DNA of 64,000 bases, taken from contig CAYHGT010000003.1 in assembly GCA_964356375.1 (NCBI GenBank), forward strand, positions 554-64,553, read 5' to 3'. A program made the translations under genes and the position numbers. The DNA is from an uncultured Candidatus Saccharibacteria bacterium. GTDB taxonomy: Bacteria > Patescibacteriota > Minisyncoccia > UBA6257 > GWB1-50-10. Under the pieces are notes generated by a model. The model was given only the letters and a program-made list of their open reading frames with translations. It was not told where the DNA came from and made no database searches. Of the stretch, positions 11,843 to 59,469 are shown one piece after another (the stretch's first letter is position 1; each line of letters starts with the position of its first letter).

Positions 11843-11849
11843 AGATAGT

Positions 11850-12038
11850 GGTAGTAGTAGGTGTTGTGAATATGTGGATATACTTGTTTTTGTAAGCTTG
11901 TGTTTGGTTTTCTTTTTCCTATCCTGTGGAAAACAAACTAAGTGGTGTTGATGATTTCTTCTTTTTTATTTTTCTCATATTTTTATACAGCAACTATCAA
12001 CATACTTATCCATCGCCTTATCCACTTATTATCCCACA
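11850..12038. promoter_or_regulatory. oriC: DnaA-box cluster (oriC candidate) in the dnaA-dnaN intergenic spacer
   Basis: Several 7-8/9 matches to TTATCCACA (tgtggata at 11873; cttatccat, ttatccact and ttatcccaca at 12006-12037) in an AT-rich spacer. Context is the canonical dnaA-dnaN arrangement. Confidence 0.5.
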
Positions 12039-16868: not shown

Positions 16869-17985
16869 CGTATCTATTCACAAAATAAATAGAGTTGTTT
16901 ACCGACACCACATTATCCGCATCAAGCGAGGGAATTGGACCAGATTCTCCTACTACAACAGCAGAATCAGTTCCTGATTGTAAAACTATTTTGTAAAGGT
17001 CATCGCTTGTGTATAGTTTATTCATAAAATAATCATCAGGTATAGCATTTGTTCTTACAAACACACCCCTATCTTTTGGAACAAAGCAGTACACCACATC
17101 AGCCCCACCATCGCATTTTGTAGGAAGCGTAATTAGGACAAGTGGAACAAGCTCGCTGAATGTTCTGTCTAATATTGAAAACTTGTTTGGTGAAGAAAAG
17201 CGGAACAAGACATCTTTATTACTACCCCACCGCACAAATGAACCAAACGCGGGACTTATGACGAGCGTCACTATCCCGGTTTTTGTATCAATTTGCCACA
17301 CGCGCGAACTAGCGTATGAAGACGGTTTTTCGGAAATCAGTATTTCGGTTGCGGATTTTGCGTAAAACGAAATACCCCTCATAGAAAAATTGGAAACAAT
17401 AGTTTTAAACACATAAGGTTGTTTTGATATGTCTATAAACGAAAGCGAAGTTACTCCATTTTTTTGTACACTTCCAACTAATTGTGTTTCGGTACTCGCC
17501 CACGCCACACTTATAATTTCTTTAGGAAGTGGGCGCCACACCTTATCAATGGTGTCAAAAAGTGCCCACTGTGGAGATGAGGGATTGCCGTACGAGATAA
17601 GCGCTCTTTCACCCGAGGGAGATGGTTCAACACGTATTAATCCGGCTATGGTTTGTTTTGACGCGGGCACATCCCCGCTATCCTTTGCTTCTATTACTTC
17701 GCCATCGGCCGAGATGTAGAATACCGCTTTGGTTGTTTTGGAAACCCAAAACCCGAGCACGGGCTTATTTGAAAGCTTCCTAAACGTATAAGAATCTTCG
17801 GTTGAAGTGCTTGCAATTGCTCCTATCCTCGCATCTTGTGGTAATGGAACATTGATTGTCGCGTTTGGTTGTTCCTCTTGCGCAACAGGAGCAGGAACGA
17901 AAAATTTTGACCAAAGAAAATAAACAAAAAATACAGCAAGAAGTACAGAAACGGATATGATAATAATTTTATAAATCGGTTTCAT
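16810..17985 (-). CDS. Hypothetical membrane-anchored extracytoplasmic protein (T4SS-like cluster)
   Basis: Single N-terminal TM (IIIISVSVLLAVFFVYFLW) followed by a roughly 360-aa beta-rich domain; overlaps neighbouring genes (operon-like packing). Confidence 0.45.
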   Translation of the reverse strand: MKPIYKIIIISVSVLLAVFFVYFLWSKFFVPAPVAQEEQPNATINVPLPQDARIGAIASTSTEDSYTFRKLSNKPVLGFWVSKTTKAVFYISADGEVIEAKDSGDVPASKQTIAGLIRVEPSPSGERALISYGNPSSPQWALFDTIDKVWRPLPKEIISVAWASTETQLVGSVQKNGVTSLSFIDISKQPYVFKTIVSNFSMRGISFYAKSATEILISEKPSSYASSRVWQIDTKTGIVTLVISPAFGSFVRWGSNKDVLFRFSSPNKFSILDRTFSELVPLVLITLPTKCDGGADVVYCFVPKDRGVFVRTNAIPDDYFMNKLYTSDDLYKIVLQSGTDSAVVVGESGPIPSLDADNVVSVNNSIYFVNRYDGYIYVIQHQSNEPPIYDY

Positions 17986-17989
17986 ATAG

Positions 17990-18694
17990 TTATCGTATGA
18001 ATATATTGGTATCGGTCTTTATAATATTGGTCATATCATCCCTGCTTTGCACATAAGAAGAAACCGCCACGTTTTTCTGCGCCTCTGAAAAAGGGCTACT
18101 AATTTTGAGAGAAATAGAATTTTCGGCTCCCATGTTTTTCTTTATACTTCCCACCTGCCAATAGAAAATAAAGCGATTAAGTGATGCAACATTAAAGAAA
18201 TAAGGAACCGCACGCATGGTAACGTCGGAATTTGCGTTAATTATTGAATGAGGATATGGAATTTCTATCGCGACTACGGGCTGTGAGATTGGTATTAAAA
18301 TAGATTGTTCTGCGATTATGTTGCCAAGCGTGATTTCCGCGCGGACAAAAATACCATCTACGTCATTGGTATCAGGTTTCAGCGATGTTTGCTTTAATCC
18401 GATTCCAGAATCTATTTGATTTCCCGAGTTATACCACGCGATATTCGCTTGCGAAAGATCTGCAGATTTGCCATTTATGAGCATTTCAGTAGAAACGGTT
18501 ATCGGTGTGCCAATCGTTGGTAGTGCCCTTCCCCTATAATTAGAAGGATAAAAATTTTCAGCACTCCACGTGAGAATTATCTGTGGCGGAATTTGCGGAG
18601 CTGGCGCTGTTTTTGCCGCATGTGCGAAAAAAAAGGGCACAAAAAAACCTAGTATAGAAAACGATAGTATGGTTGTTTTGAAAAAACTTCTCAT
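17990..18694 (-). CDS. Hypothetical secreted protein (T4SS-like cluster)
   Basis: Signal peptide MRSFFKTTILSFSILGFFVPFFFAHAA; no recognisable motifs. Confidence 0.45.
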   Translation of the reverse strand: MRSFFKTTILSFSILGFFVPFFFAHAAKTAPAPQIPPQIILTWSAENFYPSNYRGRALPTIGTPITVSTEMLINGKSADLSQANIAWYNSGNQIDSGIGLKQTSLKPDTNDVDGIFVRAEITLGNIIAEQSILIPISQPVVAIEIPYPHSIINANSDVTMRAVPYFFNVASLNRFIFYWQVGSIKKNMGAENSISLKISSPFSEAQKNVAVSSYVQSRDDMTNIIKTDTNIFIR

Positions 18695-18699
18695 ATTTC

Positions 18700-19215
18700 T
18701 TATTTTTTGATAGGAACCTTGTTTGCTACTTTTTCTACCGCCTGCACCACCGCAAACTTTTCTGGATGATTTTCCATATATACCGTCACAAGGAATGTGA
18801 ATATCAGCGTTGGAATAAATGGGATTAATTGTACAAGAAAAGGAACAAGAAAACGTTTTGCTAAGCTTGATGTCACCTTACACCCCTTAATTGTAAACCA
18901 AAATGTGAAAATGAACCACGAGGTGAATTGTACAATAGTACCCAACAAACTGAAGGAGAAGAAATCTCCAATCGCGGCTAGTATATCAAGGATGATACAA
19001 ATCAAAGAGCCTAAAATTATCTCAATGGTTGAGAATTTTGGCCCCGTAGAAGATCCCAAATGCTTCCCCGCTTTTTCAAAAGCGCGCCCCTTTTCGTTAT
19101 TTTGTACTCGTATTGAAGCGGAGTGTCCTACGGTACTCACACCCTCCCCGACCGTCATCGTTCTTCTGCTTACAACACGTCTTGCTCCAGGCATAATTGG
19201 CGCATTTGTTGCCAT
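18700..19215 (-). CDS. Hypothetical polytopic membrane protein (T4SS-like cluster)
   Basis: Three to four predicted TM helices; directly downstream of the VirB4 gene. Confidence 0.45.
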   Translation of the reverse strand: MATNAPIMPGARRVVSRRTMTVGEGVSTVGHSASIRVQNNEKGRAFEKAGKHLGSSTGPKFSTIEIILGSLICIILDILAAIGDFFSFSLLGTIVQFTSWFIFTFWFTIKGCKVTSSLAKRFLVPFLVQLIPFIPTLIFTFLVTVYMENHPEKFAVVQAVEKVANKVPIKK

Positions 19216-19218
19216 ACG

Positions 19219-20970
19219 TTATTTTTTTAGTCCCTTAATTTCCAAGATCTGCTCGGGGTTTGTGGTGATAATCTGGTCCTCGGTGTAGGAAGCAACAATC
19301 TTAATCGCAACGTGCTTTGCGCCCGCAAAGAAAAGCGCCTCACCAATGTTTGCCTCAAGAAGGAATCCTTTCTCGCCCTCGGTTAAGCTGAACGCGCCCG
19401 CAACAACATCAATAGCCGCTGGCGACTGCTTCATAAGAATTTGCGTTGCCGAGTTAGTGATAATTGGTTTGCCATATTCTGATTTCAAGAAATCTTCCAC
19501 GTCTTGCGTGATAGTTGTAATGCCGAGGTAATATTTGCGGGCGCGCTTCACAAGCCCAAAAAGGAATGACGCGCTGTCCTTAAACTTCATCATAATCCAC
19601 GCCTCATCAACGACGAGCACGCGTTGGCGAAGCTCTGCGCGAATAAGATTCCACACGAAATTCAATACGATATACATCGCAATCGGGCGAAGTTCTTCGT
19701 CTAAATCACGAATTGAAAAAACAATGAGGCGGTTTTTAAAATCAACATTCGTGGGTGCGTTCGTAAAGCCCGCGTATGTGCCGTGTACAAATTTTTCAAG
19801 ACGTTGCGCGAGCTGAAGCCCTCCCTTTGTGTTTTGTAAAATAACCTGAAGATCCTCAAGAAGTGGAGGCTCCATTTCTTTTGTCTGGCCGAAATTGTCT
19901 GCGGTAATATCGCGCGACGCGTATGTATCAGAAAGCGCCTTATCAAGGAGAGCGTCTTCTTCGGGCGATATTACACCAAGCATCAGTTTTATAAGACCCG
20001 AGAGGTTCAAGATATGGGACTTAAATACATCCGCAGGTTCATCCCCTTCTGGAATAATAGGAATATCAAACGGATTGATATGGCTTTGCGATGTGAGCGA
20101 AATTTTGAAATAACTTCCGCCAATAGCATTGGAAAGATTTTGGTACTCATTTTCTGGATCTATTACAATCACATTTGTGCCAGTCATAAGCGAGCGCAAA
20201 ATGAGAAGTTTTGCGGTGTATGATTTACCAGCGCCAGCTTTTGCAAATACCACCTGGTTTGCATTTTCAAGCGAGAATCGGTCAAAAATAACTAAGCTAT
20301 TGTTGTGCATGTTTACGCCATACATCACACCCTTGTCGGATGTAAGGTCCGGAGAGACGAACGGAAAAAGCGAAGAGGCTGGCCCAGAATTAAGCGGTGT
20401 GTGTGTTTCAAGCTTATCTGTGCAGAGCGGAAGGACCGAATCAAATCCCTCCATCTGCTTGAAAAGCGCGGGCTTTATATAGACCAACTTACTCTGAAGC
20501 ATTGATTCTAATTGGGTTTCAAGTTTTGCGAGCGCATCCAAGCTTTGTCCATAAAGTGTGATATATACCCCAACTTTGAAAAGCTTTTCTCTCGCTTGCA
20601 TTAATGAATCGCGCAAGCTCTCAATGTCTTGGTAGGCGGTCTCAAGCAGTGGATCGCGCACCATACCCTTTGTTGCTTTTTCGTCCATTTCCGACTGGAC
20701 CTGCGCCACCTTTTTTTGGAGGTTGCGTAAAGCCCCCGCAGTTTCCATGGGATGTATGAAAATAGAGATATCCATCATCTCGGAAAGATTGATGATGGGC
20801 GAGAACCAGCCGGAAGAAACGAAGCGCGGGTATGTGAAAATGAAAACAGTTTTTACGAAATAATCACCGAGTTTCAGATAGTTCGGACTCACTTCAAGTC
20901 CCGAGGGCGCAACAATGTTTGGAAGGTCTCCAGGCGACGGCTTATATGTTTGTGGAATTTGTATCTTCAT
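19219..20970 (-). CDS. virB4: VirB4/TrbE/CagE-family type IV secretion ATPase, C-terminal two-thirds (ATPase domain)
   Basis: Walker A VVFAKAGAGKSYTAKL, the VirB4 signature DPENEY (DPKGEY-like), Walker B VLVVDEAW, and the upstream YPRFVSSGWFSPIINL VirB4 core. Its ATG is supplied by the terminal motif of a mini-element (cttctaacgggATG). Confidence 0.85.
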   Translation of the reverse strand: MKIQIPQTYKPSPGDLPNIVAPSGLEVSPNYLKLGDYFVKTVFIFTYPRFVSSGWFSPIINLSEMMDISIFIHPMETAGALRNLQKKVAQVQSEMDEKATKGMVRDPLLETAYQDIESLRDSLMQAREKLFKVGVYITLYGQSLDALAKLETQLESMLQSKLVYIKPALFKQMEGFDSVLPLCTDKLETHTPLNSGPASSLFPFVSPDLTSDKGVMYGVNMHNNSLVIFDRFSLENANQVVFAKAGAGKSYTAKLLILRSLMTGTNVIVIDPENEYQNLSNAIGGSYFKISLTSQSHINPFDIPIIPEGDEPADVFKSHILNLSGLIKLMLGVISPEEDALLDKALSDTYASRDITADNFGQTKEMEPPLLEDLQVILQNTKGGLQLAQRLEKFVHGTYAGFTNAPTNVDFKNRLIVFSIRDLDEELRPIAMYIVLNFVWNLIRAELRQRVLVVDEAWIMMKFKDSASFLFGLVKRARKYYLGITTITQDVEDFLKSEYGKPIITNSATQILMKQSPAAIDVVAGAFSLTEGEKGFLLEANIGEALFFAGAKHVAIKIVASYTEDQIITTNPEQILEIKGLKK

Positions 20971-21103
20971 CCCGTTAGAAGCGATTAACGCTTATTGTTT
21001 GTTTGTGCGACCAATCAACTGCTGTTTCCAATTTTGAAATTTTTGCCACGCGCACGACCACCGCAGGTGGTCGGCTTCTAACGGGATTCATCCCGTTAAT
21101 TAG
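20968..21103. mobile_element. Miniature inverted-repeat element (CATCCCGTTAGAAG ... CTTCTAACGGGAT, plus an adjacent truncated second terminus) inserted between the two VirB4 halves; contains a 38-aa read-through ORF (minus strand, 20975-21091)
   Basis: 14-bp terminal inverted repeats. Outward reading of each end gives TAA-CGGG-ATG. The interior is an uninterrupted ATG-to-TAA frame of 117 nt (MNPVRSRPPAVVVRVAKISKLETAVDWSHKQTISVNRF). Confidence 0.45.
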
Positions 21104-21139
21104 TGTGTCCACATTTTTTGTTATAGTTTGGTTCATTCT

Positions 21140-21778
21140 TTATAATTTTTTGGTAAGCTCCATACCCTTTTTCTCGGTGAGTTGTGGATTGTACATATTG
21201 TAGAATAGTTCCACGATTTCATCGGTATCTAATTGGGTCACATGGAGACCAACCTGCTCTAAGCCGTCAGTTACCTCGGAAACGCGATGTTCAAGTTGTT
21301 CAAGCGCGGCTTGTTCCGATTGGTTTGCCTCAACTTTTGTTTGTTTTTTAAACATATCAAGAAGATTGAATGACGATTTTTGGATAGACGATCCCTCGTA
21401 GGGCACAATTACAAAAAATGTCTTATTAATGATAGCGTTTTGGTCAACAAACGAGCGGATAAACTCCGCGTATTCGGCAATCTGAATCTTCAAAAGCGCA
21501 TTTTCTTCCTGTTCTTCACGCTGTTTCATTTTTGCAAGATATGCATCCACATTCACTTTTCGCGAGTGAATGAAAAGCTGGATTGAAAAATCAATCGTAT
21601 TCAAAAAATTCTGGAAACTATTAAGTATGGTCACCTGCTCGGCCTCCGATTTAAGATCAAAATTAACGCCACCCACAATGAGTATTTTACGAATACCGCC
21701 ACTCTTCAAATATGCGACACCGTCGCGCACCTCTTTTATATCAACGAATTGTTGTGTGGGAATGCTTACTTCTGCCAT
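21140..21778 (-). CDS. virB4: VirB4-family ATPase, N-terminal domain (separate ORF)
   Basis: FVDIKEVRDGVAYLKSGGIRKILIVGGVNFDLKSEAEQ resembles the N-terminal segment of Gram-positive-type VirB4 (TcpF/Orf16/PrgJ-like). 212 + 583 aa is about full VirB4 length; it lies directly upstream of the ATPase ORF on the same strand. Confidence 0.5.
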   Translation of the reverse strand: MAEVSIPTQQFVDIKEVRDGVAYLKSGGIRKILIVGGVNFDLKSEAEQVTILNSFQNFLNTIDFSIQLFIHSRKVNVDAYLAKMKQREEQEENALLKIQIAEYAEFIRSFVDQNAIINKTFFVIVPYEGSSIQKSSFNLLDMFKKQTKVEANQSEQAALEQLEHRVSEVTDGLEQVGLHVTQLDTDEIVELFYNMYNPQLTEKKGMELTKKL

Positions 21779-21857
21779 ATGTCATTAGTATACCGCATTT
21801 TTCTACCTACGGTAAATCTTCCATGTCCGCCGATAGGCAGGCGCAGGGGAGACAACC

Positions 21858-22343
21858 TTAATAATCAACTCTCTTCGCTACCTTATGCTCCCCCGTTAAA
21901 TATGTCACAGATTGATATCGAGCGCCGCTCGCACTCTTGTGTTTGAGGATTTCTCCCGTGGTGATGCTCTGCGCAAGTGATTTAATTTTGTCCTGGATAC
22001 TTATATTGTTGCGCAACGCCTGGATTTTTTCCAAATCAGAGGTATCAAGCGTGGTCTGCTCCATCGCGCGTTGCCATGTATATCTGCGAGGCTTCCATAT
22101 AAAGGAGACCGCAGAAACCAAAATTGTTGGAAAGTCCTGACCGTTTATTTTCACAAACGCAAGCGCAATCGCGATACTGGCCAAAATAACAGAGATAAAT
22201 AACCACAAGAAAAACGTAAGCACATAAAAACCGGCAATAGAAATACCTCCCGCAACCGCGAGATAAAAAAATTGCATCAGCGTAAACGGGCCGACTATTT
22301 TCGCCTTCTCCTCAATAAATTGTGGGACTTGGAATTCTGCCAT
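21858..22343 (-). CDS. VirB3/PrgI-like small two-TM membrane protein
   Basis: 161 aa with two TM helices (FFYLAVAGGISIAGFYVLTFFLWLFISVILASIAIALAFV), immediately upstream of virB4 in the conserved virB3-virB4 order. Confidence 0.35.
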   Translation of the reverse strand: MAEFQVPQFIEEKAKIVGPFTLMQFFYLAVAGGISIAGFYVLTFFLWLFISVILASIAIALAFVKINGQDFPTILVSAVSFIWKPRRYTWQRAMEQTTLDTSDLEKIQALRNNISIQDKIKSLAQSITTGEILKHKSASGARYQSVTYLTGEHKVAKRVDY

Positions 22344-22357
22344 GTGTAAAAAGAAAA

Positions 22358-23590
22358 CTACTTTAAATGAACCACATTTCCTTCTAGTGCCGGACCGTTT
22401 TCTTTTGGCGCGTATTCAGCCCCTTTTGTCTGGGTATTAGGAAGTTTAGCGGGTACAGCGCTTATTGTGATGGGAACGGGCTGACTCGTTGTGGGTTTTA
22501 GGTTGCCACCCTCCGGAAGATGTTCAGCGGGGACATAGATTTTAGGTTGTTTGTCTGCAACCGAAATCTTCTTTTCTTCCCTTTTTTTGTTGAATATGGA
22601 TTTTAGTGACCATCTCCTTCCCTCTTCTTTTACAGATTCATTTAGCGCTGACGTATCAACGACCGTAGGAGTGGAGGCCGTCTCTGGTGCTTTTGATTGC
22701 AATGCATCAATTGAGCCCGCGATACTCGGTGTGACAACAGGACTTATTTTTTCCGTCTCGTTGTCGTATGTTGTAGGTCGTTTGTCGTTGGTTGAGATAT
22801 TTTGCAACGCTTCCAAATGAATGAGACCCTCGGGAGTTTGCGAAAGCGGAGAAGACGATGAGCGGATTTCGCTATAATGCACAACTTTTTCCTCGTCTTT
22901 CTTCTTTTCAAATGGCCAACTGAACGCATGCGGGGTTTCAATTTTTACTTTCACAGCCGGCTTCGCCTCCGTTGATTCGGGAGAAGATGCAAACATATTG
23001 AACGGAATTGGCGACCTCCTCTTTTCTGTGCGCTCCGCAGGCTTCTCAAAGAATGAACCGCTCTTTTGGAGCACCATCGGACCACCTTCTTCATGGATAG
23101 GCAATGAGACAGGTTCTGTGTCCTCGGTTCCTATCGCGCTTACTTGTATTTTTTCGCCAATTAGCCCCACTGATTCTACCTTTGTTTCCGTCGCCACCTC
23201 TTCATTGTTCGGCTGTGTGGTTGTTTTTTCACTTTCTTCAGTTGCTTCCGTTTCGTCACCGTACGGATTATACGCCTCTTCAAGCTCCTCTTTTACCGAA
23301 TCAAAAATACGCGCATTAATTTCATTCGCAAGCGCGCGTGAATGTTCGTGGTTTAGAAATAGTCGTTCGCCTATCTCATGCGTAAGTTCGCTTTTTGCCA
23401 AGAAGCCCATAAGTACAAACGCAATGAGTGCTCCAAGTTCCCACTGTTTTTCCTCGTCAAGATAGTGTTCCCTACCGATGTTTTCCAACATCTTTTTTCC
23501 TTGTTGTGAATCAACCGCATCACGAAGTTCTTCGTGGAGCGCGGTATAACGATTAGTGAATGCTGTTTTTGTGGGGAATGTGAATGCCAT
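22358..23590 (-). CDS. Hypothetical acidic, low-complexity (E/T/P/K-rich) protein
   Basis: 410-aa ORF with a structured N-terminal part of about 90 aa, then a long disordered region; no motif recognised. Confidence 0.45.
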   Translation of the reverse strand: MAFTFPTKTAFTNRYTALHEELRDAVDSQQGKKMLENIGREHYLDEEKQWELGALIAFVLMGFLAKSELTHEIGERLFLNHEHSRALANEINARIFDSVKEELEEAYNPYGDETEATEESEKTTTQPNNEEVATETKVESVGLIGEKIQVSAIGTEDTEPVSLPIHEEGGPMVLQKSGSFFEKPAERTEKRRSPIPFNMFASSPESTEAKPAVKVKIETPHAFSWPFEKKKDEEKVVHYSEIRSSSSPLSQTPEGLIHLEALQNISTNDKRPTTYDNETEKISPVVTPSIAGSIDALQSKAPETASTPTVVDTSALNESVKEEGRRWSLKSIFNKKREEKKISVADKQPKIYVPAEHLPEGGNLKPTTSQPVPITISAVPAKLPNTQTKGAEYAPKENGPALEGNVVHLK

Positions 23591-23594
23591 TTTA

Positions 23595-25838
23595 TTATGT
23601 AATTATTTTTGGTCCTTGCGCATTCCGTTCAGCGTCTTCTTTCGCCCTGCGCGCGCGTTCTTCTTCTCTTGATTGCGCAGCCGCCTTAGCGCGAATATTC
23701 GCGATCGGGGTGTTTTCGGTGAATCCCTCAGTAATAATCGGACTTGTAGTTTTTTCTTTTGGAGTATTTGGTTGTTTTTTATTCTCTTTTTCTTTTTTCT
23801 CAGCTTCCGCGATTTCTTTTTTCGCGTCATTCCAAAGATCCGTGATTTTTTCTAGCGGGTTTTCAGAGAACCACCCGTCGTTCTTAGCATTCCTTGCCGC
23901 AATAGTAGCTTCCACAAGGTCTTTTGCGCGCTCCTCCCACTGCGCTTTTGTTTTTGGTTTCTGCCCCTCTATTTTCTGCCACTTCGCGGTCTGCTCCTTT
24001 GCGGCAGTAATTTTTGAATCCAAATCATGTTTCATTCCGGGCGCGGGTATATATGCTTTGTTTTTAATATCCTCGTCTTTCTTTGCGGTCATAGCCACAA
24101 GCTGTTTCTCCCATTCCGTTCTTGCTGGTGATGCTTCTGCCGAAGTCTTTCTCATCTTAGAGAGTTCTTTGTATGTAGCGTCTCGTTGCGCCTCAAAGAA
24201 CGAGGTCTTGAGACCTTTTGCGAGGAGCATTTCGCGTTTCAACTCAAACTCCTCAGCTTGTTTCATAAGACCCTCTTCGGTTTCCGGAAGTTTTGTTTTC
24301 TTTCTCATCTCGTCCTCCAATTTCTCAATATTTTTCTTCATGTCGCTTACATCAACGCCAGCCTTCTCAAGCTCTTCCAGTTTCTTAAGCTTCTTCTCAT
24401 GGTTTTTCTCATCTTCTTCTAACGATGTTGTTTCTTTCGCTTTCTTCGCTTCGCTAATCTTGGTTTCTACACCCTTTTCTCCGCCCGTAAGTACTGCCCA
24501 CGCGAGAGAGCCTAGCGAGTCCGGTTTCGTGGAGGCGCCATCCACCGTCTGGAGTCCTTGACCCGCAACACGTATCATGGCTTGTAGAGGTGCGCGCACT
24601 GGTGTCATTGCAAGCATTGCCGCCTTTCCAAACAGATTTTTTGGTTTGTACTCGCCCACCGTCTTTATACCCGTACCAAAACGAAGCGCTTGTCGCCCAA
24701 TTGCCCCCCCCACCCGAGATTGGGCAATTTTTTGACCAAATGTTTTTGCGCCCTTGCCTGCATAATTCTTCGCAATCGCGCCAAGTCCTTGAAGTCTATC
24801 AATACCCGCAGCTGCCGCGACGATGCCCATTTTTTGTGCAGCAATAAGTCCGCCAATCAAGATTCCGCTAAGAACAGTCATTTGTGAACCGATAACCATG
24901 ATGTTTTGCAATGCGCCCATTTTGAAAAACTCATTGGTCGTATTCACTTTACCAAGCGCCTCCGCGCTTCCAAGCGCAAGATAGAGAAAAAACATAAGTA
25001 TAGGGGCAAAGAATACCTGTTCCATGAACTTGCTCCACCATTTAGAGAACTTATCCGCCTGTCCTGGAATTACCCAAAAGAGCCACGTAATTGGCGCAAG
25101 GATGAGAAGAATGGAGAGCCACACAAACCGTACGAGAAGCATGATAGCAAAAATAAACATAATGATGGTAGCGATAAGATTAAATCCAGTGATAAAAAAG
25201 ATTTCCGCGATGGACGCCATAACCGCAGTTGAAAGACTCGTGCCCACACCGGCTTCATCCGCAGGATTTGGTGGTAAGGGGTCATTTCCACTATTTAACA
25301 TAAATTGTTGAGAATTAAATGCGCCCGCCAACTTGTTTACCACACCAAACATCCCCCCTTCGTTTATTTTGCTCATAAAGAAATTGGTGATTACATTGGA
25401 GAAATCAATAAATACCCCCCCAATAGCGAGGCTGAAGTTCACGAGGATTGCGGCTGCGATGAGTTTTGGAAGCAATTTTTTATACCCGTATTCTTCAGAG
25501 CCGACGATGGTGGCAAAAGCGATGATAATCATTGCGAGCACGAATCCAAGGTTCGCAAGGTCGCGCGTAATTGTCCAACCAACACCCACAAGCTGGTTTA
25601 CACCCGTGTTGGCAACTGTGGTATTGAGCGTCATCATAAATTCAACGAGCGCGCCCGCGAGCATAAACGCAAGTGAGATAAAGAAGTTATAGAGATAGAT
25701 AATAAATTTTGCGGAGTAGGATACTATATCAGCAAGCATCTGATCCGCGAATGCCGCGTGCGCAAATTGAGGCACAATAAGTCCCACGAGGATAAGCGCG
25801 CCGAGACCCGAAAGCATTTTTTTATTGCGTAGCTTCAT
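23595..25838 (-). CDS. Large polytopic membrane protein, VirB6/TrbL-like, with a lysine/glutamate-rich C-terminal tail
   Basis: Signal-like N-terminus, at least eight hydrophobic helices over about 400 aa, then a roughly 300-aa charged coiled-coil-like tail. The position within the T4SS-like gene block fits the enlarged VirB6 homologs of Gram-positive systems. Confidence 0.45.
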   Translation of the reverse strand: MKLRNKKMLSGLGALILVGLIVPQFAHAAFADQMLADIVSYSAKFIIYLYNFFISLAFMLAGALVEFMMTLNTTVANTGVNQLVGVGWTITRDLANLGFVLAMIIIAFATIVGSEEYGYKKLLPKLIAAAILVNFSLAIGGVFIDFSNVITNFFMSKINEGGMFGVVNKLAGAFNSQQFMLNSGNDPLPPNPADEAGVGTSLSTAVMASIAEIFFITGFNLIATIIMFIFAIMLLVRFVWLSILLILAPITWLFWVIPGQADKFSKWWSKFMEQVFFAPILMFFLYLALGSAEALGKVNTTNEFFKMGALQNIMVIGSQMTVLSGILIGGLIAAQKMGIVAAAAGIDRLQGLGAIAKNYAGKGAKTFGQKIAQSRVGGAIGRQALRFGTGIKTVGEYKPKNLFGKAAMLAMTPVRAPLQAMIRVAGQGLQTVDGASTKPDSLGSLAWAVLTGGEKGVETKISEAKKAKETTSLEEDEKNHEKKLKKLEELEKAGVDVSDMKKNIEKLEDEMRKKTKLPETEEGLMKQAEEFELKREMLLAKGLKTSFFEAQRDATYKELSKMRKTSAEASPARTEWEKQLVAMTAKKDEDIKNKAYIPAPGMKHDLDSKITAAKEQTAKWQKIEGQKPKTKAQWEERAKDLVEATIAARNAKNDGWFSENPLEKITDLWNDAKKEIAEAEKKEKENKKQPNTPKEKTTSPIITEGFTENTPIANIRAKAAAQSREEERARRAKEDAERNAQGPKIIT

Positions 25839-25846
25839 TATGCGAT

Positions 25847-27958
25847 TTAATACTGCACGCGTAGTCTACCCGTTGTCGTCACATTCACTGTTTTTGATAC
25901 AACCCCACCAGCACCATAACAAGAGAGCGTGTAGGTAGATAATGAACCGGGGTCGCTAAAAAGGCGAACATTCTCAGAGCCCGAAGTTGCTCTCAGTCCA
26001 TCCCAATCGCCAGATGCGGTACATGAACTTGCGCCCGTGGTAGACCAAGTAATTTTCACAAGTCCTCCAACATGTACACGTGCGGGAGTCCGAGTGAGCG
26101 TAAGTGTTGGAATTGTAGATGTGCTGGTCCCACCACCAACTGGCACCGCCGGACACATATATGGGGCGGGTGCCACGGTGCTGGTGCACGCATTAAGTTG
26201 TGAGGTTACGTCAGTCGATGCGAATGCGGTTTTATCAGCGGTGAGCTTATTTATCATATCGTTTATTGCGGTTGCATATTGTTGAACCTCCGTATAAAGA
26301 GCGAATACATCTTCTGGGGTAGTTTCGGGATCGTTTAGTGTCGCAATCATGTCAATCAGTCGTTGTTTGAGGGTATTAAGCAGTGAATTTGCGCCAGTAA
26401 TATCCGAGGAAAGTGATATGATAGCGGAGAACAAATTCGCGGTTGTAGGACACTGCGCCTTTTGTGCGGTCTTTTGCGCCTCGCACGCCGAAAGAAGCGA
26501 CAGGTCTGACTGAGACACAGACGGCAAGGCCGTAACATCGGCAACCAAAGGAGCAAGCACATCATTTAACGCGGCGAGTGCGCTTTCAGCAAGACTAAGC
26601 GCGGTTGAGGTAGAAACAAGTGCTGGATTCGTTGAAGTGGTGGTCGTGTCTAAAAGTTCCGAGCCATACTCAAGATAAATCATATCGCGTTTGCACTTTT
26701 CAGTTTGTGCGGTGGTTACGTTTGGACCTGTTGGCATGCTTGTGCAATATGGTTCGGGTGCTTTGTTTGTAGAACTATTACTGAATATGTTTTTGGATGC
26801 GTCACTAAGACCCTTTACACCTTCTTTTGCGAGGCGATTAAAGGCCGCATCAAATATTGCGGAAAGATAAGGAGTAAGGTCGTCGGCGCTTACGAGCGCG
26901 TCCTTGTCATTGCTACCAAGCGAATTGCCGAGTATTGTGCCAAGTGTTTCTCCTGGTGTTGTAATTTTCTGGCCTTCTGCCTTACATACAATTTTTGTGA
27001 TTATGTCTTCAAGTGGTAATGCTGGCACTATTTTTCCTCGCGCGACCGATTCGGATGGTGGCTCGCTCGGGTCTATAAGAGAGTTATCATTACCAGCGAG
27101 GAATGTTGCAATAACCGTTTCGGGGCCAAGGTCATTATCAGCATCTCCAAGTGAGCTCCTTCCGATGACGGACCACGTGATACACATTTTTGTAGACAAA
27201 AATCCTTTAGTGCCAGCCGTCTCAGTTTTTAACGCATCAGTTTTTGCACCCTTCCTACGCGAAAGATCATCAATTGCCAAAAGTTGAAGTCCATATTTAT
27301 TATTTTGGAGGCTATTCACTTCTTGATATGCAAGCCAACTCCCATTTTCAAAATTATCAGCAAATGCGCGTACATTACCTATCACTTTTGAGAGTGTGCA
27401 ACTTGCGGCCTTGGAAAGTTTAGGCGGTGTTTGCAGGTTTAGTTGTAATTGAATGCCGAGTTTTGCGTCACACAGTTGTCCCGCACCGATTTCTTGGAGC
27501 GTATCTCCGAGCGCGGCGTCTGCGCTATCCCTAAGCACCGAGTTGAAATTAGTAACGAATTTAGGGTTCCCTCCCGTTCCACTTATCCAAGCGACTACAT
27601 CATCGGTGAGCCTATCAAGTAGGTGCTTTTTAAACTTATTAAATGCAATTTTAATGAGCATCTTCCAGAGAGCTTTTAAACATTCTTCTACGTTATCCCA
27701 AAACTTTTGCCAAGAAGTCCTGTGATCAAGCGCCGCAACCGCTGGATCTGGCGCTAAGGAGCTCAGTTTGCCAGAAACTAGTGCGGCAAGCCATTTAGCC
27801 GCCTTTGTTATTCCACATTTTTTGAATACCTCCTGCGCCCCCCCATCCGCGCTTGCAGCGGCCGCGTTCGCTCTATCTGGGAGCACAAAATACAACGAAT
27901 TCGCAAGAATTATTATAGAAAGAAGCGAGGCGATAGTTTTTGTTGTAGATGGACGCAT
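25847..27958 (-). CDS. Large secreted protein with C-terminal Ig/PKD-like beta-sandwich domain
   Basis: Signal peptide (IASLLSIIILANSLYFV...ANA); Cys-containing; C-terminal roughly 100 aa rich in T/S/G beta-strand pattern. Confidence 0.45.
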   Translation of the reverse strand: MRPSTTKTIASLLSIIILANSLYFVLPDRANAAAASADGGAQEVFKKCGITKAAKWLAALVSGKLSSLAPDPAVAALDHRTSWQKFWDNVEECLKALWKMLIKIAFNKFKKHLLDRLTDDVVAWISGTGGNPKFVTNFNSVLRDSADAALGDTLQEIGAGQLCDAKLGIQLQLNLQTPPKLSKAASCTLSKVIGNVRAFADNFENGSWLAYQEVNSLQNNKYGLQLLAIDDLSRRKGAKTDALKTETAGTKGFLSTKMCITWSVIGRSSLGDADNDLGPETVIATFLAGNDNSLIDPSEPPSESVARGKIVPALPLEDIITKIVCKAEGQKITTPGETLGTILGNSLGSNDKDALVSADDLTPYLSAIFDAAFNRLAKEGVKGLSDASKNIFSNSSTNKAPEPYCTSMPTGPNVTTAQTEKCKRDMIYLEYGSELLDTTTTSTNPALVSTSTALSLAESALAALNDVLAPLVADVTALPSVSQSDLSLLSACEAQKTAQKAQCPTTANLFSAIISLSSDITGANSLLNTLKQRLIDMIATLNDPETTPEDVFALYTEVQQYATAINDMINKLTADKTAFASTDVTSQLNACTSTVAPAPYMCPAVPVGGGTSTSTIPTLTLTRTPARVHVGGLVKITWSTTGASSCTASGDWDGLRATSGSENVRLFSDPGSLSTYTLSCYGAGGVVSKTVNVTTTGRLRVQY

Positions 27959-33664: not shown

Positions 33665-33771
33665 TCAATCCCGTTAGAGGCAACTGACCCCACCAGTTTC
33701 ATCTATTGTGCCAGCAGGAGCTGTGTGTTGATATCCCAGAAGCGTGGTAGACTCAAGCCTCTAACGGGATC
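33665..33771. repeat. Inverted-repeat mini-element copy A (TCAATCCCGTTAGAGG ... GCCTCTAACGGGATC, about 107 bp)
   Basis: 13-15-bp perfect terminal inverted repeats around a non-conserved spacer of about 80 bp; homologous termini occur at 48436-48537 and 59366-59469. Confidence 0.55.
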
Positions 33772-39868: not shown

Positions 39869-40765
39869 ATGACCGATGTTGAGAAGTATTTTCACGAATA
39901 TCTGGATTATTTAGAGATTGAGAAGAATCGCTCGCTTAAAACGCGCGAGAACTACGCGCACTATTTGGAGGTTTTTCTAAAAGAAACGGGTGTGAAAAAA
40001 CCGAGCGATATCACGGACGCGGTGGTTCGTTCGTTCCGTATTACGCTCGCCCGACGCGAGATGAAAAAAATTACACAGAACTATTACGTAATCGCCCTCC
40101 GCAATTTTTTGAAATATTTAGTGCGACGCAGGATAAGGTCCTTGGCACCCGAGACCATAGAACTTCCGAAGGTTGCGCGTCGCGATATTGAGGTGCTGGA
40201 CTATAAGGAGCTTGAGCGCTTACTCGTGGCTCCCAAGGGCGACTCGCTTCGCGTGCTCCGCGACAGGGCTATACTTGAAGTTTTATTTTCCACGGGCCTC
40301 CGCGTTTCGGAAATCTGTAAACTTCCCCGCTATCTTGATTTAGCGCGCGGAGAAATGTCTGTGCGCGGGAAGGGTGAGAAGATTCGCGTGGTTTTCTTAT
40401 CCGATAGTTCAAAAACAGCCATAAAAGAATATTTAAAAAAACGGACCGATGCGGACGAGGCGCTTTTCATCGGTGTCGCAAAAAGCGGAAAACCGCTGGG
40501 AAAAATAGATTCACGCACAATTCAGCGTCTCGTAGATTCCTACGCACGAAAAGCAGGTATCGCAAAGCGCGTGCATCCCCACGAACTGCGCCACTCGTTT
40601 GCGACCGACCTCTTAATAAATGGTGCCGACCTCCGTTCTGTCCAAGAGCTTTTGGGCCACGCAAATATTTCTACCACGCAGGTTTACACGCATCTTACAA
40701 ATAAAGAGCTTCATGAGGTTCATGAAGCGTTCCACGGAAGGCGCAGGAAAAAAGATGACGAATAA
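39869..40765 (+). CDS. xerC: Tyrosine site-specific recombinase XerC/XerD family
   Basis: R...HxxR...Y catalytic pattern (HELRHSFATDLL, LLGHANISTTQVYTHL); 298 aa. Confidence 0.88.
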   Translation: MTDVEKYFHEYLDYLEIEKNRSLKTRENYAHYLEVFLKETGVKKPSDITDAVVRSFRITLARREMKKITQNYYVIALRNFLKYLVRRRIRSLAPETIELPKVARRDIEVLDYKELERLLVAPKGDSLRVLRDRAILEVLFSTGLRVSEICKLPRYLDLARGEMSVRGKGEKIRVVFLSDSSKTAIKEYLKKRTDADEALFIGVAKSGKPLGKIDSRTIQRLVDSYARKAGIAKRVHPHELRHSFATDLLINGADLRSVQELLGHANISTTQVYTHLTNKELHEVHEAFHGRRRKKDDE

Positions 40766-41544: not shown

Positions 41545-41728
41545 ATACTACAAAAATCCGAATCACTTCGAAAAATTATACGCCAATTTTGCATTTTTTC
41601 CACACATCGCACCCATTTGCTTTTCATCTATTCCTTCAGCTCCGCCTAACCCCCTATCCCCACCCAAAATAACCAAAAACCTCCGAAACATGAAAGTTCG
41701 GAGGTTTTTATTTTAAGAGAGCGATGCG

Positions 41729-42085
41729 TTAGAGCGCGCCACCACCTGCGGGGGCAGTGAGTGTCACACCCAAGAAGCTCCTGACAATCTCCGGAATTGC
41801 AAACGCCAAGAGGCCAACCGCGATACCGACAATTGCGTAGGTAAGCATATGCTTTGCCTCATCAATTTTTGCAGTGTCACCTCCCGCGGTTAAATATTTG
41901 AATCCAGCCATAAGGATAAATATTGTTGCCACGAGGAAGAAGATAGCCATGACCCACTGCATAAAAAGCGTAACTTTTTGCCAAATGCCAGCAAGATCGG
42001 TCGGCGCGTTGCCTACAACAGCAGCAGACGCAAGCATGGGAATTAACACAAGTCCGATTATTGCGTATTTCGTAAGGTTTTTCAT
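41729..42085 (-). CDS. VirB2/TrbC-like pilin (paralog 1)
   Basis: Signal peptide followed by two hydrophobic helices separated by a short G..D.AK loop (FILMAGFKYLTAGGDTAKIDEAKHMLTYAIVGIAVGLL); 118 aa. Confidence 0.55.
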   Translation of the reverse strand: MKNLTKYAIIGLVLIPMLASAAVVGNAPTDLAGIWQKVTLFMQWVMAIFFLVATIFILMAGFKYLTAGGDTAKIDEAKHMLTYAIVGIAVGLLAFAIPEIVRSFLGVTLTAPAGGGAL

Positions 42086-42127
42086 AAGATAATTATTGAA
42101 TAAATAAAAGTATCAAACATCCGACCT

Positions 42128-42532
42128 TTACTGACTAAGGAAATTCGTAATAATCAGTCCGATTCCTTTAGCAAGTAAAAGTATAGCATACCCCACAACC
42201 GTCCACAATAATGCGCTCCTCGCCGTGGTGAGTTTTTCTGGCTCTCCCGCAGACGTCATAAAGAGATATGCCGCCCAGATAACCATCGCGGCTGCAACGG
42301 GTGTTGCAAACACAATAAGTCCATCAATAATTTTTCCAATGAGGTCGTTTATGTTGCTCACGCCAAGTGGATTCGGCAGGGTGACCGATGTGACCGCACC
42401 CACTGGCAATGTTTGTGCGCTTGCATGTACCGCAACGAAAAGCATCGCTAGCATAAGCACAAAGAAGATTTTTTTTGTATTATTTTTCATCCCATTAGAA
42501 GTATAAGTTTTCATCCCGTTAAAGTTTTTCAT
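42128..42532 (-). CDS. VirB2/TrbC-like pilin (paralog 2)
   Basis: Same architecture (MVIWAAYLFMTSAGEPEKLTTARSALLWTVVGYAILLL). N-terminus MKNFNGMKTYTSNGMKNN has two ATGs, each formed by a CATCCC(A/G)TTA(G/A)A element terminus. Confidence 0.55.
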   Translation of the reverse strand: MKNFNGMKTYTSNGMKNNTKKIFFVLMLAMLFVAVHASAQTLPVGAVTSVTLPNPLGVSNINDLIGKIIDGLIVFATPVAAAMVIWAAYLFMTSAGEPEKLTTARSALLWTVVGYAILLLAKGIGLIITNFLSQ

Positions 42533-42586
42533 ATGTTGATAATTTGTTTTCTACTATTGTTTATTTTTACTATAATTTTCATTATA

Positions 42587-42676
42587 CAAGTTTGTCTTCC
42601 TTCGGTAGATGTCTCATACCTTTGGTAGATCTACCGTAGGTATGACCGTAGGGACATAAAACTCTAACGGGACTTC
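42587..42676. repeat. Roughly 90-bp direct repeat copy 1 (...tttgtcttccttcggtagatgtctcatacctttggtagatctaccgtaggtatgaccgtagggacataaaactctaacgggactt)
   Basis: Near-identical copy at 43180-43269. Ends with the CTCTAACGGGA mini-element terminus; contains the GGTAGATCTACC palindrome. Confidence 0.7.
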
Positions 42677-42682
42677 GTTTTT

Positions 42683-43144
42683 TTATGTACACGTAATAGT
42701 TGCCCACGGGGCCGACACGCCCGATTGCACGAATACAGAGAGTACAGTATTCACGATTGTCCACGCGGCAACTGCAATCGCAATGCCTATAATAGCACTT
42801 GTCATAATACTCTTTGCATCAGTTAGGGTTTTCTCATTTCCTCCCGCAGCCATCATACGAATTGCACCCCACGCAATCATACCCGTTCCGATGGAGAAAG
42901 CGAGCTGAAATCCGAATGTAATGATGTTGCGCATTACAATCATTGCATCACATAAACTACACGGACCAATTGGTCCGCCGTCTGGACCAATTGCATCACC
43001 ACTACACTTGGCGCCTTCCCAAATATTTATTGCCTGCGCCTGATGCATTGGCACAAAAAGCGCGAGACCTATAAAGATAAGAAGCGAGAGCGCGACGATT
43101 TGTTTCGTCCCGTTAAAGTTTTTATAAATTAGTTTTTTTATCAT
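42683..43144 (-). CDS. VirB2/TrbC-like pilin (paralog 3)
   Basis: Same architecture (MIAWGAIRMMAAGGNEKTLTDAKSIMTSAIIGIAIAVAA) plus a Cys-rich insert. N-terminus ...KNFNGTKQ retains the element-derived motif with ATG changed to ACG. Confidence 0.55.
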   Translation of the reverse strand: MIKKLIYKNFNGTKQIVALSLLIFIGLALFVPMHQAQAINIWEGAKCSGDAIGPDGGPIGPCSLCDAMIVMRNIITFGFQLAFSIGTGMIAWGAIRMMAAGGNEKTLTDAKSIMTSAIIGIAIAVAAWTIVNTVLSVFVQSGVSAPWATITCT

Positions 43145-43179
43145 TGATGATTTCTTATTTTTCTACGATTTCCGCCCTA

Positions 43180-43269
43180 CAAATTTGTCTTCCTTCGGTA
43201 GATGTCTCATACCTTTGGTAGATCTACCGTAGGTATGACCGTAGGGACATAAAACTCTAACGGGACTTA
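43180..43269. repeat. Roughly 90-bp direct repeat copy 2
   Basis: See copy 1 (42587-42676). Confidence 0.7.
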
Positions 43270-43277
43270 TGCCTTTA

Positions 43278-44597
43278 TTATAAACTTTTTTGTCTAAAGA
43301 TGTCATTTACCTCGCTTACCGCCTGCTGGGCTGATTCATAGACGGAAAGTTTTTTGGAAACCGCATTGTCTATCATACGCGAAAAAATATCTCGTACGGT
43401 TCTATCGTCTGGCTTCGGCCACGAGCGCGCAATGAGCGCGGAACGCGCGAAGACGCTCATCACGGGGTCATTCAAATTTTGGTTGATGAGCGAGAGAAGC
43501 GCGGGTGGCGTGTTCATTACCCCGAGATACATATTGGCAATCGTTAGATTTGTGGTGAGCGCTAAGATGAGTTTTTTTGCCGCGTCATTTTGTTTCGTCT
43601 GTATGGAAACCGCGAGACCGTAGTAGAATGGATGAGTAACGGCGAATTTTTTGGCTAATGTTTCTGGTTGCGGCATCGCCGTCACACCGAAATTCAAAAA
43701 CGAATTTTTTGTACGAATCGCATTTACGTCCGAAAGATAGCCGAAAATCATTGCAACTTTTTCCTGGCTAAATGCATCAATAGAATATTGCATCGCATCA
43801 TTCCAGGAGTAGGTGCTATTTGTTGAATCTCCAAACTGTGTATAGAATGCAAGCGCGTTTCTTCCTTCTTCGGACGAGAATAGGGCACCAGAAAATCCAG
43901 GATCTACCATCTTAGTACCTGTCTGGAGCATAAGTGTGCCAAGTATATCGGATGCATTTTTCACATTTTTTTCTGAACCACCAAGCGTGCTCGCTGCAAT
44001 AAGAACCGTGCTTGTGCTCGTCTTATTTTTTACATCTCTCTTCACGAGTTTGGGCGTAATATTTTTAAACTCCTCCCATGTAGTAGGTGGAAATGGAATG
44101 CTAGCGGCATTCAGCATGTCTTTGTTATAGATGAGTACAAGCGTATCAATAGAGAGTGGAAGCGCATATACCTGCTCTTTCTGCACAAATGTCTGTGTGA
44201 CGGTCTGTGGGAAAAGCTGGTCAACTTGTGCCAAGGAGATTGCGCTAGCCGAAAAAGGTATTATTTTATTCGCGAAGCGCGGAAAGCTTTCATTCGCGAC
44301 CATAAAGATGTCCGGACTATTTCCAGAGGCAAATGCTTCAAGGAGTTTTGATTCATAATCTTCTTGCGTATCAAACCCGCGATACGCCATTTGGATATTT
44401 GGATACGTTTTTTTAAATTCAGCGAGCGCATCGCTCCATTGTCCTATGTCGCGTCCCACGCCCCACATTTTAAGATTTGCCTGAATAGCGGTTAGTTCCG
44501 CTTTTTGGAATCCAGGGAGCATGCCGAAAGCCATAAGAATAAAAACAAGCACCAAAAAGCCGCCAACGCCGATAATAATTAATTGGTTCCGAGTCAT
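43278..44597 (-). CDS. ABC-transporter extracellular solute-binding protein (family 1-like)
   Basis: N-terminal TM/signal anchor; about 410-aa periplasmic-binding-protein-like region. Its ATG start codon is formed by the terminal CAT of a mini-element end (CATCCTGTTAGAAG). Confidence 0.6.
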   Translation of the reverse strand: MTRNQLIIIGVGGFLVLVFILMAFGMLPGFQKAELTAIQANLKMWGVGRDIGQWSDALAEFKKTYPNIQMAYRGFDTQEDYESKLLEAFASGNSPDIFMVANESFPRFANKIIPFSASAISLAQVDQLFPQTVTQTFVQKEQVYALPLSIDTLVLIYNKDMLNAASIPFPPTTWEEFKNITPKLVKRDVKNKTSTSTVLIAASTLGGSEKNVKNASDILGTLMLQTGTKMVDPGFSGALFSSEEGRNALAFYTQFGDSTNSTYSWNDAMQYSIDAFSQEKVAMIFGYLSDVNAIRTKNSFLNFGVTAMPQPETLAKKFAVTHPFYYGLAVSIQTKQNDAAKKLILALTTNLTIANMYLGVMNTPPALLSLINQNLNDPVMSVFARSALIARSWPKPDDRTVRDIFSRMIDNAVSKKLSVYESAQQAVSEVNDIFRQKSL

Positions 44598-44697
44598 CCT
44601 GTTAGAAGTATAAGTTTAATTTATTTTCGACTGATTTGTGCTGTGTGTGTTCTTGCGTTTTATTCATATTTCTCGTTTTGAGACCTCTAACGGGACG
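44595..44697. repeat. Inverted-repeat mini-element copy D (CATCCTGTTAGAAG ... CCTCTAACGGGACG)
   Basis: Terminal inverted repeats; interior start (TATAAGTTT) shared with the copy at 42488. Confidence 0.5.
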
Positions 44698-44780
44698 GGT
44701 CTCATTTATTATAACAGGGAATGGGGGTAGGGCATAGGGGTTGAGTGGGGCTTAGGGAAAAGGGCTTAGGGGTTAGAAAG

Positions 44781-44805
44781 AAAAAAACCGCATACGCGGT
44801 TTTTG
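44781..44805. terminator. Bidirectional intrinsic terminator (aaaaaaaccgcatacgcggttttt) embedded in a G-arm/C-arm composite repeat
   Basis: Near-identical to the hairpin at 35714-35738; between the solute-binding protein region and the gyrA 3' end. Confidence 0.6.
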
Positions 44806-44862
44806 TCTACGCTTATTTTGCCACACAGCTACTTTTTTTCCCTAAACCCTTACCCCTATTCC

Positions 44863-59365: not shown

Positions 59366-59469
59366 TCAATCCCGTTAGAGATGTCAGAATATCAAAATAC
59401 AAAAGATGCGGTCATCTCAAGCTGTGTTAATAAATGAATGTCTAAAAGACTAATATCTCTAACGGGATC
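59366..59469. repeat. Inverted-repeat mini-element copy C (TCAATCCCGTTAGAGATG ... ATCTCTAACGGGATCAA)
   Basis: Perfect 14-bp terminal inverted repeats; 104 bp; located in the promoter region of the 58604-59350 operon. Confidence 0.55.

Follow-up and report, generated by a model that had tools for sequence, protein, structure and literature searches.

The repeats of an old VirB2-like pilin array in Candidatus Saccharibacteria are probably small inverted-repeat elements inserted at start codons

The locus analysed here is an array of three consecutive minus-strand genes for VirB2-like pilins in a 64,000-nt stretch of a Candidatus Saccharibacteria contig (the window, to whose positions all coordinates refer). 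Pilin 1 (41729–42085, 118 aa) is preceded by pilin 2 (42128–42532, 134 aa as the longest open reading frame, ORF) and pilin 3 (42683–43144, 153 aa as the longest ORF), and these in turn by a gene on the same strand for a membrane-anchored solute-binding protein (SBP; SBP_bac_1/8, 43278–44597). When searched with Pfam profiles all three pilins scored above the gathering cut-off of 26.6 bits for PF18895 (T4SS_pilin), with 36.6, 31.2 and 34.7 bits for pilins 1, 2 and 3 respectively, and pilin 2 also passed PF04956 (TrbC/VirB2) with 28.2 bits at a cut-off of 27.9. The pairwise identity of the pilins is 26–28%. The genes and their strong divergence had been described in an initial annotation, which also pointed out direct repeats of about 90 bp in the spacers and read them as a substrate for recombination or paralog switching. 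[quoted passage not shown]

Related loci were retrieved by exact-protein look-ups of pilin 3 homologs and are labelled here as metagenome contigs L002, L003 and L004–L007. The gene order gyrA, SBP, pilin 3, pilin 2, pilin 1 is maintained in these relatives, the SBP gene directly preceding the pilins in all of them; all three pilins are present in L002 and L003, the contig of L004 stops after the second, and in L003 the gene next after the array encodes a Xer-type recombinase, as in the window. Each window pilin has a 1:1 ortholog with 61–92% identity (74–77% for pilin 1 in L002 and L003, 63–92% for pilin 2) while the paralogous pilins, within as well as between genomes, are 21–37% identical, from which it follows that the triplication is older than these lineages and that each copy has been maintained separately. 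The SBP gene and the three pilins form one tight, conserved gene string in every relative examined (L002–L007), which hints at a functional link between them. The distances in the relatives are short, 8–10 nt from the SBP stop codon to the ATG of pilin 3 and 3–17 nt between pilin 3 and pilin 2, whereas the window has spacers of 135–150 nt at the same two junctions; given the tight packing in the relatives, both window spacers are recent, lineage-specific insertions and not part of the design of the array. The 42-nt spacer upstream of pilin 1 is kept in the relatives and is element-free.

When analysing the two long spacers a direct repeat of 111 nt with 92% identity was found (42565–42675 and 43158–43268), and its longest identical run, 85 nt (42591–42675 and 43184–43268), agrees in coordinates with the repeat of about 90 bp reported initially; the copies are 593 bp apart and flank pilin 3. 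Nested in the repeat is a 32-nt near-palindrome (42614–42645 and 43207–43238) that is absent elsewhere in the window, and for this repeat core 0 matches were obtained in 100 shuffles, which places it far beyond chance. The mini-element termini that had also been noticed turned out to be inverted repeats formed by the outer 16 nt of each spacer copy (GTCCCGTTAGAGTTTT and AAAACTTTAACGGGAC). They delimit two copies of about 160 nt, both on the minus strand: copy A between pilin 3 and pilin 2 (42514–42675), with its gene-distal arm TCCCGTTAGAG at 42672–42662 and its proximal arm CTTTAACGGGA at 42524–42514, and copy B between the SBP gene and pilin 3 (43108–43268), with the arms at 43265–43255 (distal) and 43118–43108 (proximal). 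Neither copy has a counterpart in L002, L003 or L004.

Pilin 3 and pilin 2 thus each have an insertion of the element at their start codon or beside it, and a related copy is located at the SBP start. A -10-like TATAAT (43277–43282, minus strand) overlaps the SBP stop codon 8–10 nt before the distal end of copy B, and in L002, L003 and L004 both SBP and pilin 3 have a TATAAT 6–8 nt ahead of their ATG; in the window, exactly between this box and the pilin 3 coding sequence, there are about 160 nt. Judging from the spacing, the SBP and pilin 3 starts in the relatives would be leaderless. The pilin 3 orthologs begin with MK(H/Q)..., aligned to codon 13 of the window ORF, which is now ACG (43108–43106), the ancestral ATG being lost, and the first 12 codons, including the ATG at 43144, are element sequence. 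The target flanks of copy B are mutated, reading ATAAG on the distal and CGAA on the proximal side, and with both copies of the start codon changed in this way (ATA and ACG) pilin 3 would need the element-internal ATG at 43144, which would extend its signal peptide by 12 residues. For pilin 2, comparison of the junction with L002 identified ATG 42490 (M15) as the ancestral start and ATG 42514 (M7) as the one that has been restored where the element joins the gene. The ancestral ATG is directly preceded by a 12-nt remnant of a second proximal arm (CTTCTAATGGGA, 42490–42501, minus strand), similar to the proximal end that the element has at the SBP start.

The arm sequence is found at further places in the window. 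With at most one mismatch the 11-mer TCCCGTTAGAG occurs 15 times (0.7 expected), and the occurrences make up seven convergent pairs 96–159 nt apart together with a degenerate eighth at the SBP start; the interiors of these copies are mutually unrelated, except for both pilin copies. The six copies outside the pilin array are located at 20970–21086, 33669–33769, 44597–44695, 48439–48534, 51518–51616 and 59370–59467. Five of the eight abut a downstream start codon, namely those of the genes for a VirB4-like protein, a 614-aa protein, SBP, pilin 2 and pilin 3, and three abut a TTGACA-like -35 box (17-nt spacer, -10 box); one such promoter is present, element-free, in L003. The member at the start codon of the VirB4-like ATPase gene is canonical (117 nt, 20970–21086, minus strand, with a TGAA target duplication), and its upstream ORF is open over 38 codons (MNPVRSRPP...NRF) and ends at a UAA in the proximal arm. 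The third element near the array (44597–44695, minus strand) is placed between a -10 box (TATAAT, 44713–44708) and the SBP ATG and has a degenerate proximal arm (CTTCTAACAGGA, followed by TG); it is absent in L002, L003 and L004, where the TATAAT is 7 nt from the ATG. Perfect 4-bp duplications flank three of the seven paired copies, and four insertion sites of the window (SBP, pilin 3, pilin 2 and a Lactamase_B gene) are empty in relatives. No inverted-repeat pairs of the family type were found in the related loci L002–L004, L006, L008 and L009.

A metagenome scan with the family ends, the terminal inverted repeats TCCCGTTAGAR...YTCTAACGGGA, at a spacing of N70-100 revealed at least 120 loci, and the matches listed came from many groundwater and sediment samples, some of them on contigs of 0.6–0.75 Mb. 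Family statistics were obtained from the 137 usable copies among these listed matches and from subsets of 107, 75 and 32. A perfect 4-bp target duplication is carried by 85 of the 137 copies (62%), most often TGAA/TTCA (55), followed by TGGA/TCCA (9) and TGAG/CTCA (7), and 108 (79%) exactly adjoin the start codon of an ORF at least 60 codons long. Upstream of the retained ATG the frame is closed after 8 codons (median), while the ORF downstream extends over 208 (median), indicating that these are true gene starts. Since the gene-distal flank has the consensus ATGAA (90, 84, 78, 74 and 82 of 107 copies), the original start is retained at that side, and the last A of the element together with the duplicated TG rebuilds a second ATG at the other. 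Of 107 copies, 42 have a CCTR bulge beside the proximal arm and 1 has it beside the distal arm, which shows that the orientation of the element relative to the gene is fixed. Family-wide, then, insertion would proceed in a single orientation with a 4-bp duplication, typically of the TGAA out of ATGAA, so that a start codon is restored.

The copies range from 83 to 159 nt in length, with 8 in the 64-kb window, and combine terminal inverted repeats, target duplication, small size, many copies and filled as opposed to empty sites, the features by which a MITE is recognised. Each arm consists of 11 invariant nt and 2–9 further pairs, with 90.6% of cells paired in 32 copies; in this 32-member subfamily the ends form two helices, of 13 bp and 9 bp, in which five pairs covary. 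Counted on the sense strand, G-U pairs (20) are no commoner than A-C pairs (27), and the covariation therefore fits co-evolving transposon ends and not an RNA under selection. Rfam searches at gathering and permissive thresholds gave only tRNAs and chance hits in the window, the pilin region and four element-bearing metagenome loci, and no description of the family was found in Rfam or the searchable literature; it appears to be undescribed. Two other identities were considered for the arms and dropped: an attC-like reading of GTTAGAG/CTCTAAC, as attC core sites have the reverse order of arms and the units do not represent gene cassettes, and DNA uptake sequences, as the copies are spaced pairs with target duplications. 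Tandem elements or remnants of an earlier copy were seen in L013 (8830–9213), L116 (6131–6270) and the window (21087–21101), the latter exemplified by TTAACGGGATGAA just upstream of the copy at the VirB4 gene. Each insertion recreates the ATGAA at which it landed, so that the same start codon could perhaps be hit more than once.

Of the 75 copies that have kept the distal ATG, 34 can be read from it across the AT-rich interior without a stop, compared to 1 and 0 in the other two frames, and with shuffled interiors the mean was 8.4 and the maximum 16. Among the 34 open frames 20 end at the UAA in the proximal arm (UAAcgggAUG), 4 nt before the rebuilt AUG, 11 at a UGA overlapping it (AUGA), and 3 continue in frame into the gene. 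This arrangement suggests that ribosomes starting at the original ATG pass across the element and begin anew at the rebuilt AUG, and that downstream translation would be kept by termination-reinitiation coupling at either stop, making the insertion nearly harmless. In the pilin copies the sole long open frame of the six is the one matching the family upstream ORF (SPVRVLCPYGHTYGRSTKGMRHLPKEDK), which now ends before the junction. Taken together, we tentatively propose, giving it somewhat less than even weight, an undescribed family, common in metagenomes of groundwater and sediment, that inserts in one orientation precisely at ATG starts (many of them probably leaderless), rebuilds the ATG and hands the ribosomes on through a pass-through ORF (MNPVR...); that the element-bearing metagenome contigs are of a kind typical of Patescibacteria belongs to the same proposal and is held just as tentatively.

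Several observations weigh against this explanation of the locus. The pilin copies are 158–159 nt long compared to a family mode of 115–121 nt, their flanks (ATAAG...CGAA and CGAAG...TGAA) contain no clean duplication, and their nested palindrome was found in no other family member, which leaves the arms, the position and the reading frame as the basis for counting them in the family. The identity between copies A and B is uneven, with 85 identical nt followed by about 55 nt that are much more diverged and contain indels, and high identity again at the proximal arm; we attribute this to gene conversion over the distal part, an extra and unproven assumption by which the two copies would have been homogenised over about 90 nt. 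A search of about 0.88 Mb (120 metagenome loci, four pilin 1 contigs and the window) gave neither an autonomous element nor a transposase with the same ends, and the only arm pair there more than 250 nt apart, at 267 nt, belongs to the tandem cluster of L013. Only 45% of the copies keep the pass-through frame and the coupling may not be general: with internal stops in over half of the copies the mechanism is either not universal or decays over time. On balance the pilin copies are decayed, atypical members of the family.

The sequence particular to the pilin copies was also searched for on its own. Their exact 21-nt distal end gave 0 hits in the metagenome scan, the only open frame of the repeat retrieved no other copies when used as protein alignment query, and a search with the palindrome core in genome contigs gave simple hairpins in two metagenome-assembled genomes (MAGs; L008 and L009) and not the element. 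The palindrome CTACCTNCGGTAGATCTACCGAAGGTA stands alone in L008 (2680–2715, QYPD01000042.1, labelled as a Spirochaetia MAG), apparently in frame within an aminoacyl-tRNA synthetase-like coding sequence (peptide STYGRSTEGRQ), and in the ftsA-ftsZ spacer of a Patescibacteria MAG (L009, 4615–4650).

The recombination reading implies that the direct repeats of 85–111 nt cause pilin 3 and pilin 2 to be lost, duplicated or exchanged and thereby generate antigenic or host-range variation. In its favour, an identical run of 85 nt flanks pilin 3 at a distance of 593 bp, and the identity itself suggests gene conversion between the repeats. Nevertheless, order, content and 1:1 orthologs are conserved in three related lineages, all of which lack the repeats, and contigs of five further runs or assemblies (ERR3654040, SRR32696694, SRR32696683, ERZ1292621 and ERZ1292622; contigs L001 and L130–L133) in which pilin 1 or pilin 3 is identical match the window at 98–100%, the sole differences being an N-run in L131 and, in L132, a gap of 1 nt. 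No variants in order, copy number or orientation were found in these five contigs, four of which start or end inside the repeat; such breaks are explained by a repeat longer than the assembler k-mer, and since short-read assemblies break there rare recombinants are hard to see and could escape detection. Unlike in silent-cassette systems, the paralogs are moreover only 26–28% identical and each is complete with its own signal peptide, and the repeats lie outside the mature coding parts. Switching between the pilins is consequently very unlikely, and the interpretation given initially is partly supported: its description of the genes and repeats holds, its proposed role for the repeats finds no support.

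The element could instead have been exapted as a cis-regulatory leader whose 5' end pairs over 16 nt with the start-site region and blocks initiation of pilin 3 and pilin 2 until opened. In both pilin copies a 16-bp long-range stem is predicted that encloses the whole leader and the start region (z = -4.8 and -6.2), for SBP and pilin 3 the distal arm is closely preceded by a -10-like box, and the copies share about 90 nt without a single difference although the identity of the genes is 26%. However, the orthologous pilin genes do without such a leader, the same arms enclose unrelated interiors at unrelated genes, and neither the family-wide pair counts nor Rfam point to a selected RNA; a stem of this kind follows from the terminal repeats, though it may dampen translation. 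We regard a regulatory leader as unlikely, if less so than pilin switching. For an inverton, in which a shared recombinase would use the inverted repeats to flip a promoter segment and cause phase variation of the pilins, one could cite that the same inverted repeat flanks segments of 75–135 nt upstream of several genes, as in multi-locus invertase systems, and that the array has a Xer-like tyrosine recombinase gene (39869–40765) at a distance of 1 kb. Every independent assembly, however, shows the interior in one and the same orientation and the family orientation is 42 against 1, target-site duplications and empty sites show insertion and not inversion, and the recombinase is syntenic in relatives without repeats, which leaves this the least credible of the alternatives.

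The proteins themselves are VirB2/TrbC-like pilin paralogs. An AlphaFold2 model of pilin 3 built on 17 orthologs (mean predicted local distance difference test score, pLDDT, 67.8) contains helices at residues 2–35 (signal), 64–99 and 104–138, the last two forming a helix-loop-helix hairpin, with a short Cys-containing beta segment between the signal helix and the hairpin. The proposed architecture of a signal followed by helix-loop-helix is borne out by this model and by the AxA motifs and the aligned two-helix core read from all three sequences; signal peptides were judged by eye, that of pilin 1 ending in ...LASA before AVV. The comparison to known pilin folds was not informative: Foldseek against the PDB gave nothing at E <= 0.001 and only generic helical hairpins, and thus adds nothing beyond the profile matches, and PDB sequence and profile searches with the pilins gave no relevant match. 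The Cys-rich insert ascribed to one paralog is real and conserved in pilin 3, with C62, C65 and C152 invariant and C47 nearly so in 17 orthologs. In these orthologs three Cys are located near the mature N-terminus and one at the second or third residue from the C-terminus (...ITC and 1–2 residues). Some VirB2/TrbC pilins are known to be cyclised head to tail, and in pilin 3 it is conceivable from the sequence that a disulfide joining both ends replaces such cyclisation.

The Gly-rich tail, by comparison, is present in the 118-aa pilin 1 as described but is not conserved among the orthologs, from which the C-terminal tail of pilin 1 differs (TAPAGGGAL versus NVSGVQQL). Pilin 2 (42128–42490) lacks a Gly/Ala/Pro-rich segment of about 10–14 residues that its orthologs have right after the signal peptide, for example TPGGGAPGAGAGT (compared in L002 4063–4458, L003 6447–6839 and L004 6441–6845). 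Variation of the pilins between species is concentrated in the termini, which are probably exposed. Downstream of pilin 1 an intrinsic terminator hairpin (41675–41709, minus strand) is conserved in L002 and L003. Around the terminator hairpin after gyrA (44730–44860) there are flanking TAGGG/CCCTA-like G-rich and complementary C-rich tracts (e.g. GGGAATAGGGGTAAGGGTTTAGGG ... CCCTAAGCCCTTTTCCCTAAGCCCC); a similar G-/C-rich tract follows the terminator after pilin 1 (41640–41670), and the tracts are kept in the relative L002 (2140–2290 and 4900–4960).

A type IV secretion system (T4SS)-like cluster, placed at a distance of 15 kb by the initial annotation, was confirmed at 15369–27958, 14–21 kb from the pilin array. 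It includes the VirB4-like ATPase (19219–20970) and PrgI/VirB3 (21858–22343) and also encodes a 499-aa protein with a pilin domain. ORFs reading as dnaN and dnaA, by eye from their N-terminal sequences only, are found within 2–4 kb of the cluster (10736–13421), the same placement as the origin-proximal T4SS genes of Patescibacteria (PMC12102498). The pilins are presumably used by this T4SS near dnaA. A 2025 survey counted 441 VirB2 arrays of 2–11 genes in Patescibacteria with a mean identity of 25%, cites the essential VirB2 array of Ca. Southlakia epibionticum ML1 and already raises the possibility that divergent pilin arrays aid host adaptation (PMC12102498). Like those arrays, the window has tandem PF18895/PF04956 pilins (26–28% identity here, about 25% there) and a VirB4-type T4SS near dnaA on the same replicon, no relaxase being noticed nearby. 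Unlike them, the array is 14–21 kb from virB4 in a conserved operon with the SBP gene, and two of its start codons carry mobile-element insertions. In Bartonella and Anaplasma tandem divergent VirB2 paralogs have been proposed to broaden host interaction (as cited in PMC12102498); the window shares with these the several divergent VirB2 genes in tandem but its paralogs are old, with 1:1 orthologs and no sign of recent amplification or exchange. The pilin array is thus a further example of the published Patescibacteria pattern and ordinary for the phylum.

For the pilins the result is a correction, since the repeats of the array should not be read as a mechanism of variation. If the proposal for the family is true, the element would correspond, at the level of translation, to an intron or intein, surviving inside essential genes. 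It would be unusual for bacterial mobile DNA to target start codons and restore them, and equally to keep an open frame ending exactly at the new start. This would explain how many insertions are tolerated in small, gene-dense genomes, and it bears on translation starts in Patescibacteria. On the practical side, gene callers misplace start codons at element sites, as they did for pilins 2 and 3, and short-read assemblies break there, as seen in four of the five contigs compared.

Among known elements the closest comparison is with the Correia/NEMIS elements of Neisseria, which are non-autonomous, 100–160 bp long, have terminal inverted repeats and short target duplications and are present in many copies beside genes, with which they are co-transcribed and where their ends can pair in RNA. 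The family of the window is likewise small and non-autonomous, with terminal inverted repeats and short target duplications. The Correia target is TA, and those elements are not known to have start-codon specificity, a fixed orientation relative to the gene or a pass-through frame; in addition the Correia interiors are homologous while the interiors here are largely unrelated between subfamilies. The Rickettsia palindromic elements are small selfish palindromes that insert peptides in frame inside coding sequences. As with those, the window family would be tolerated in expressed genes by keeping the reading frame usable, but it is located at the start codon and contributes, in most cases, an upstream ORF of its own whose end coincides with the rebuilt AUG or adjoins it.

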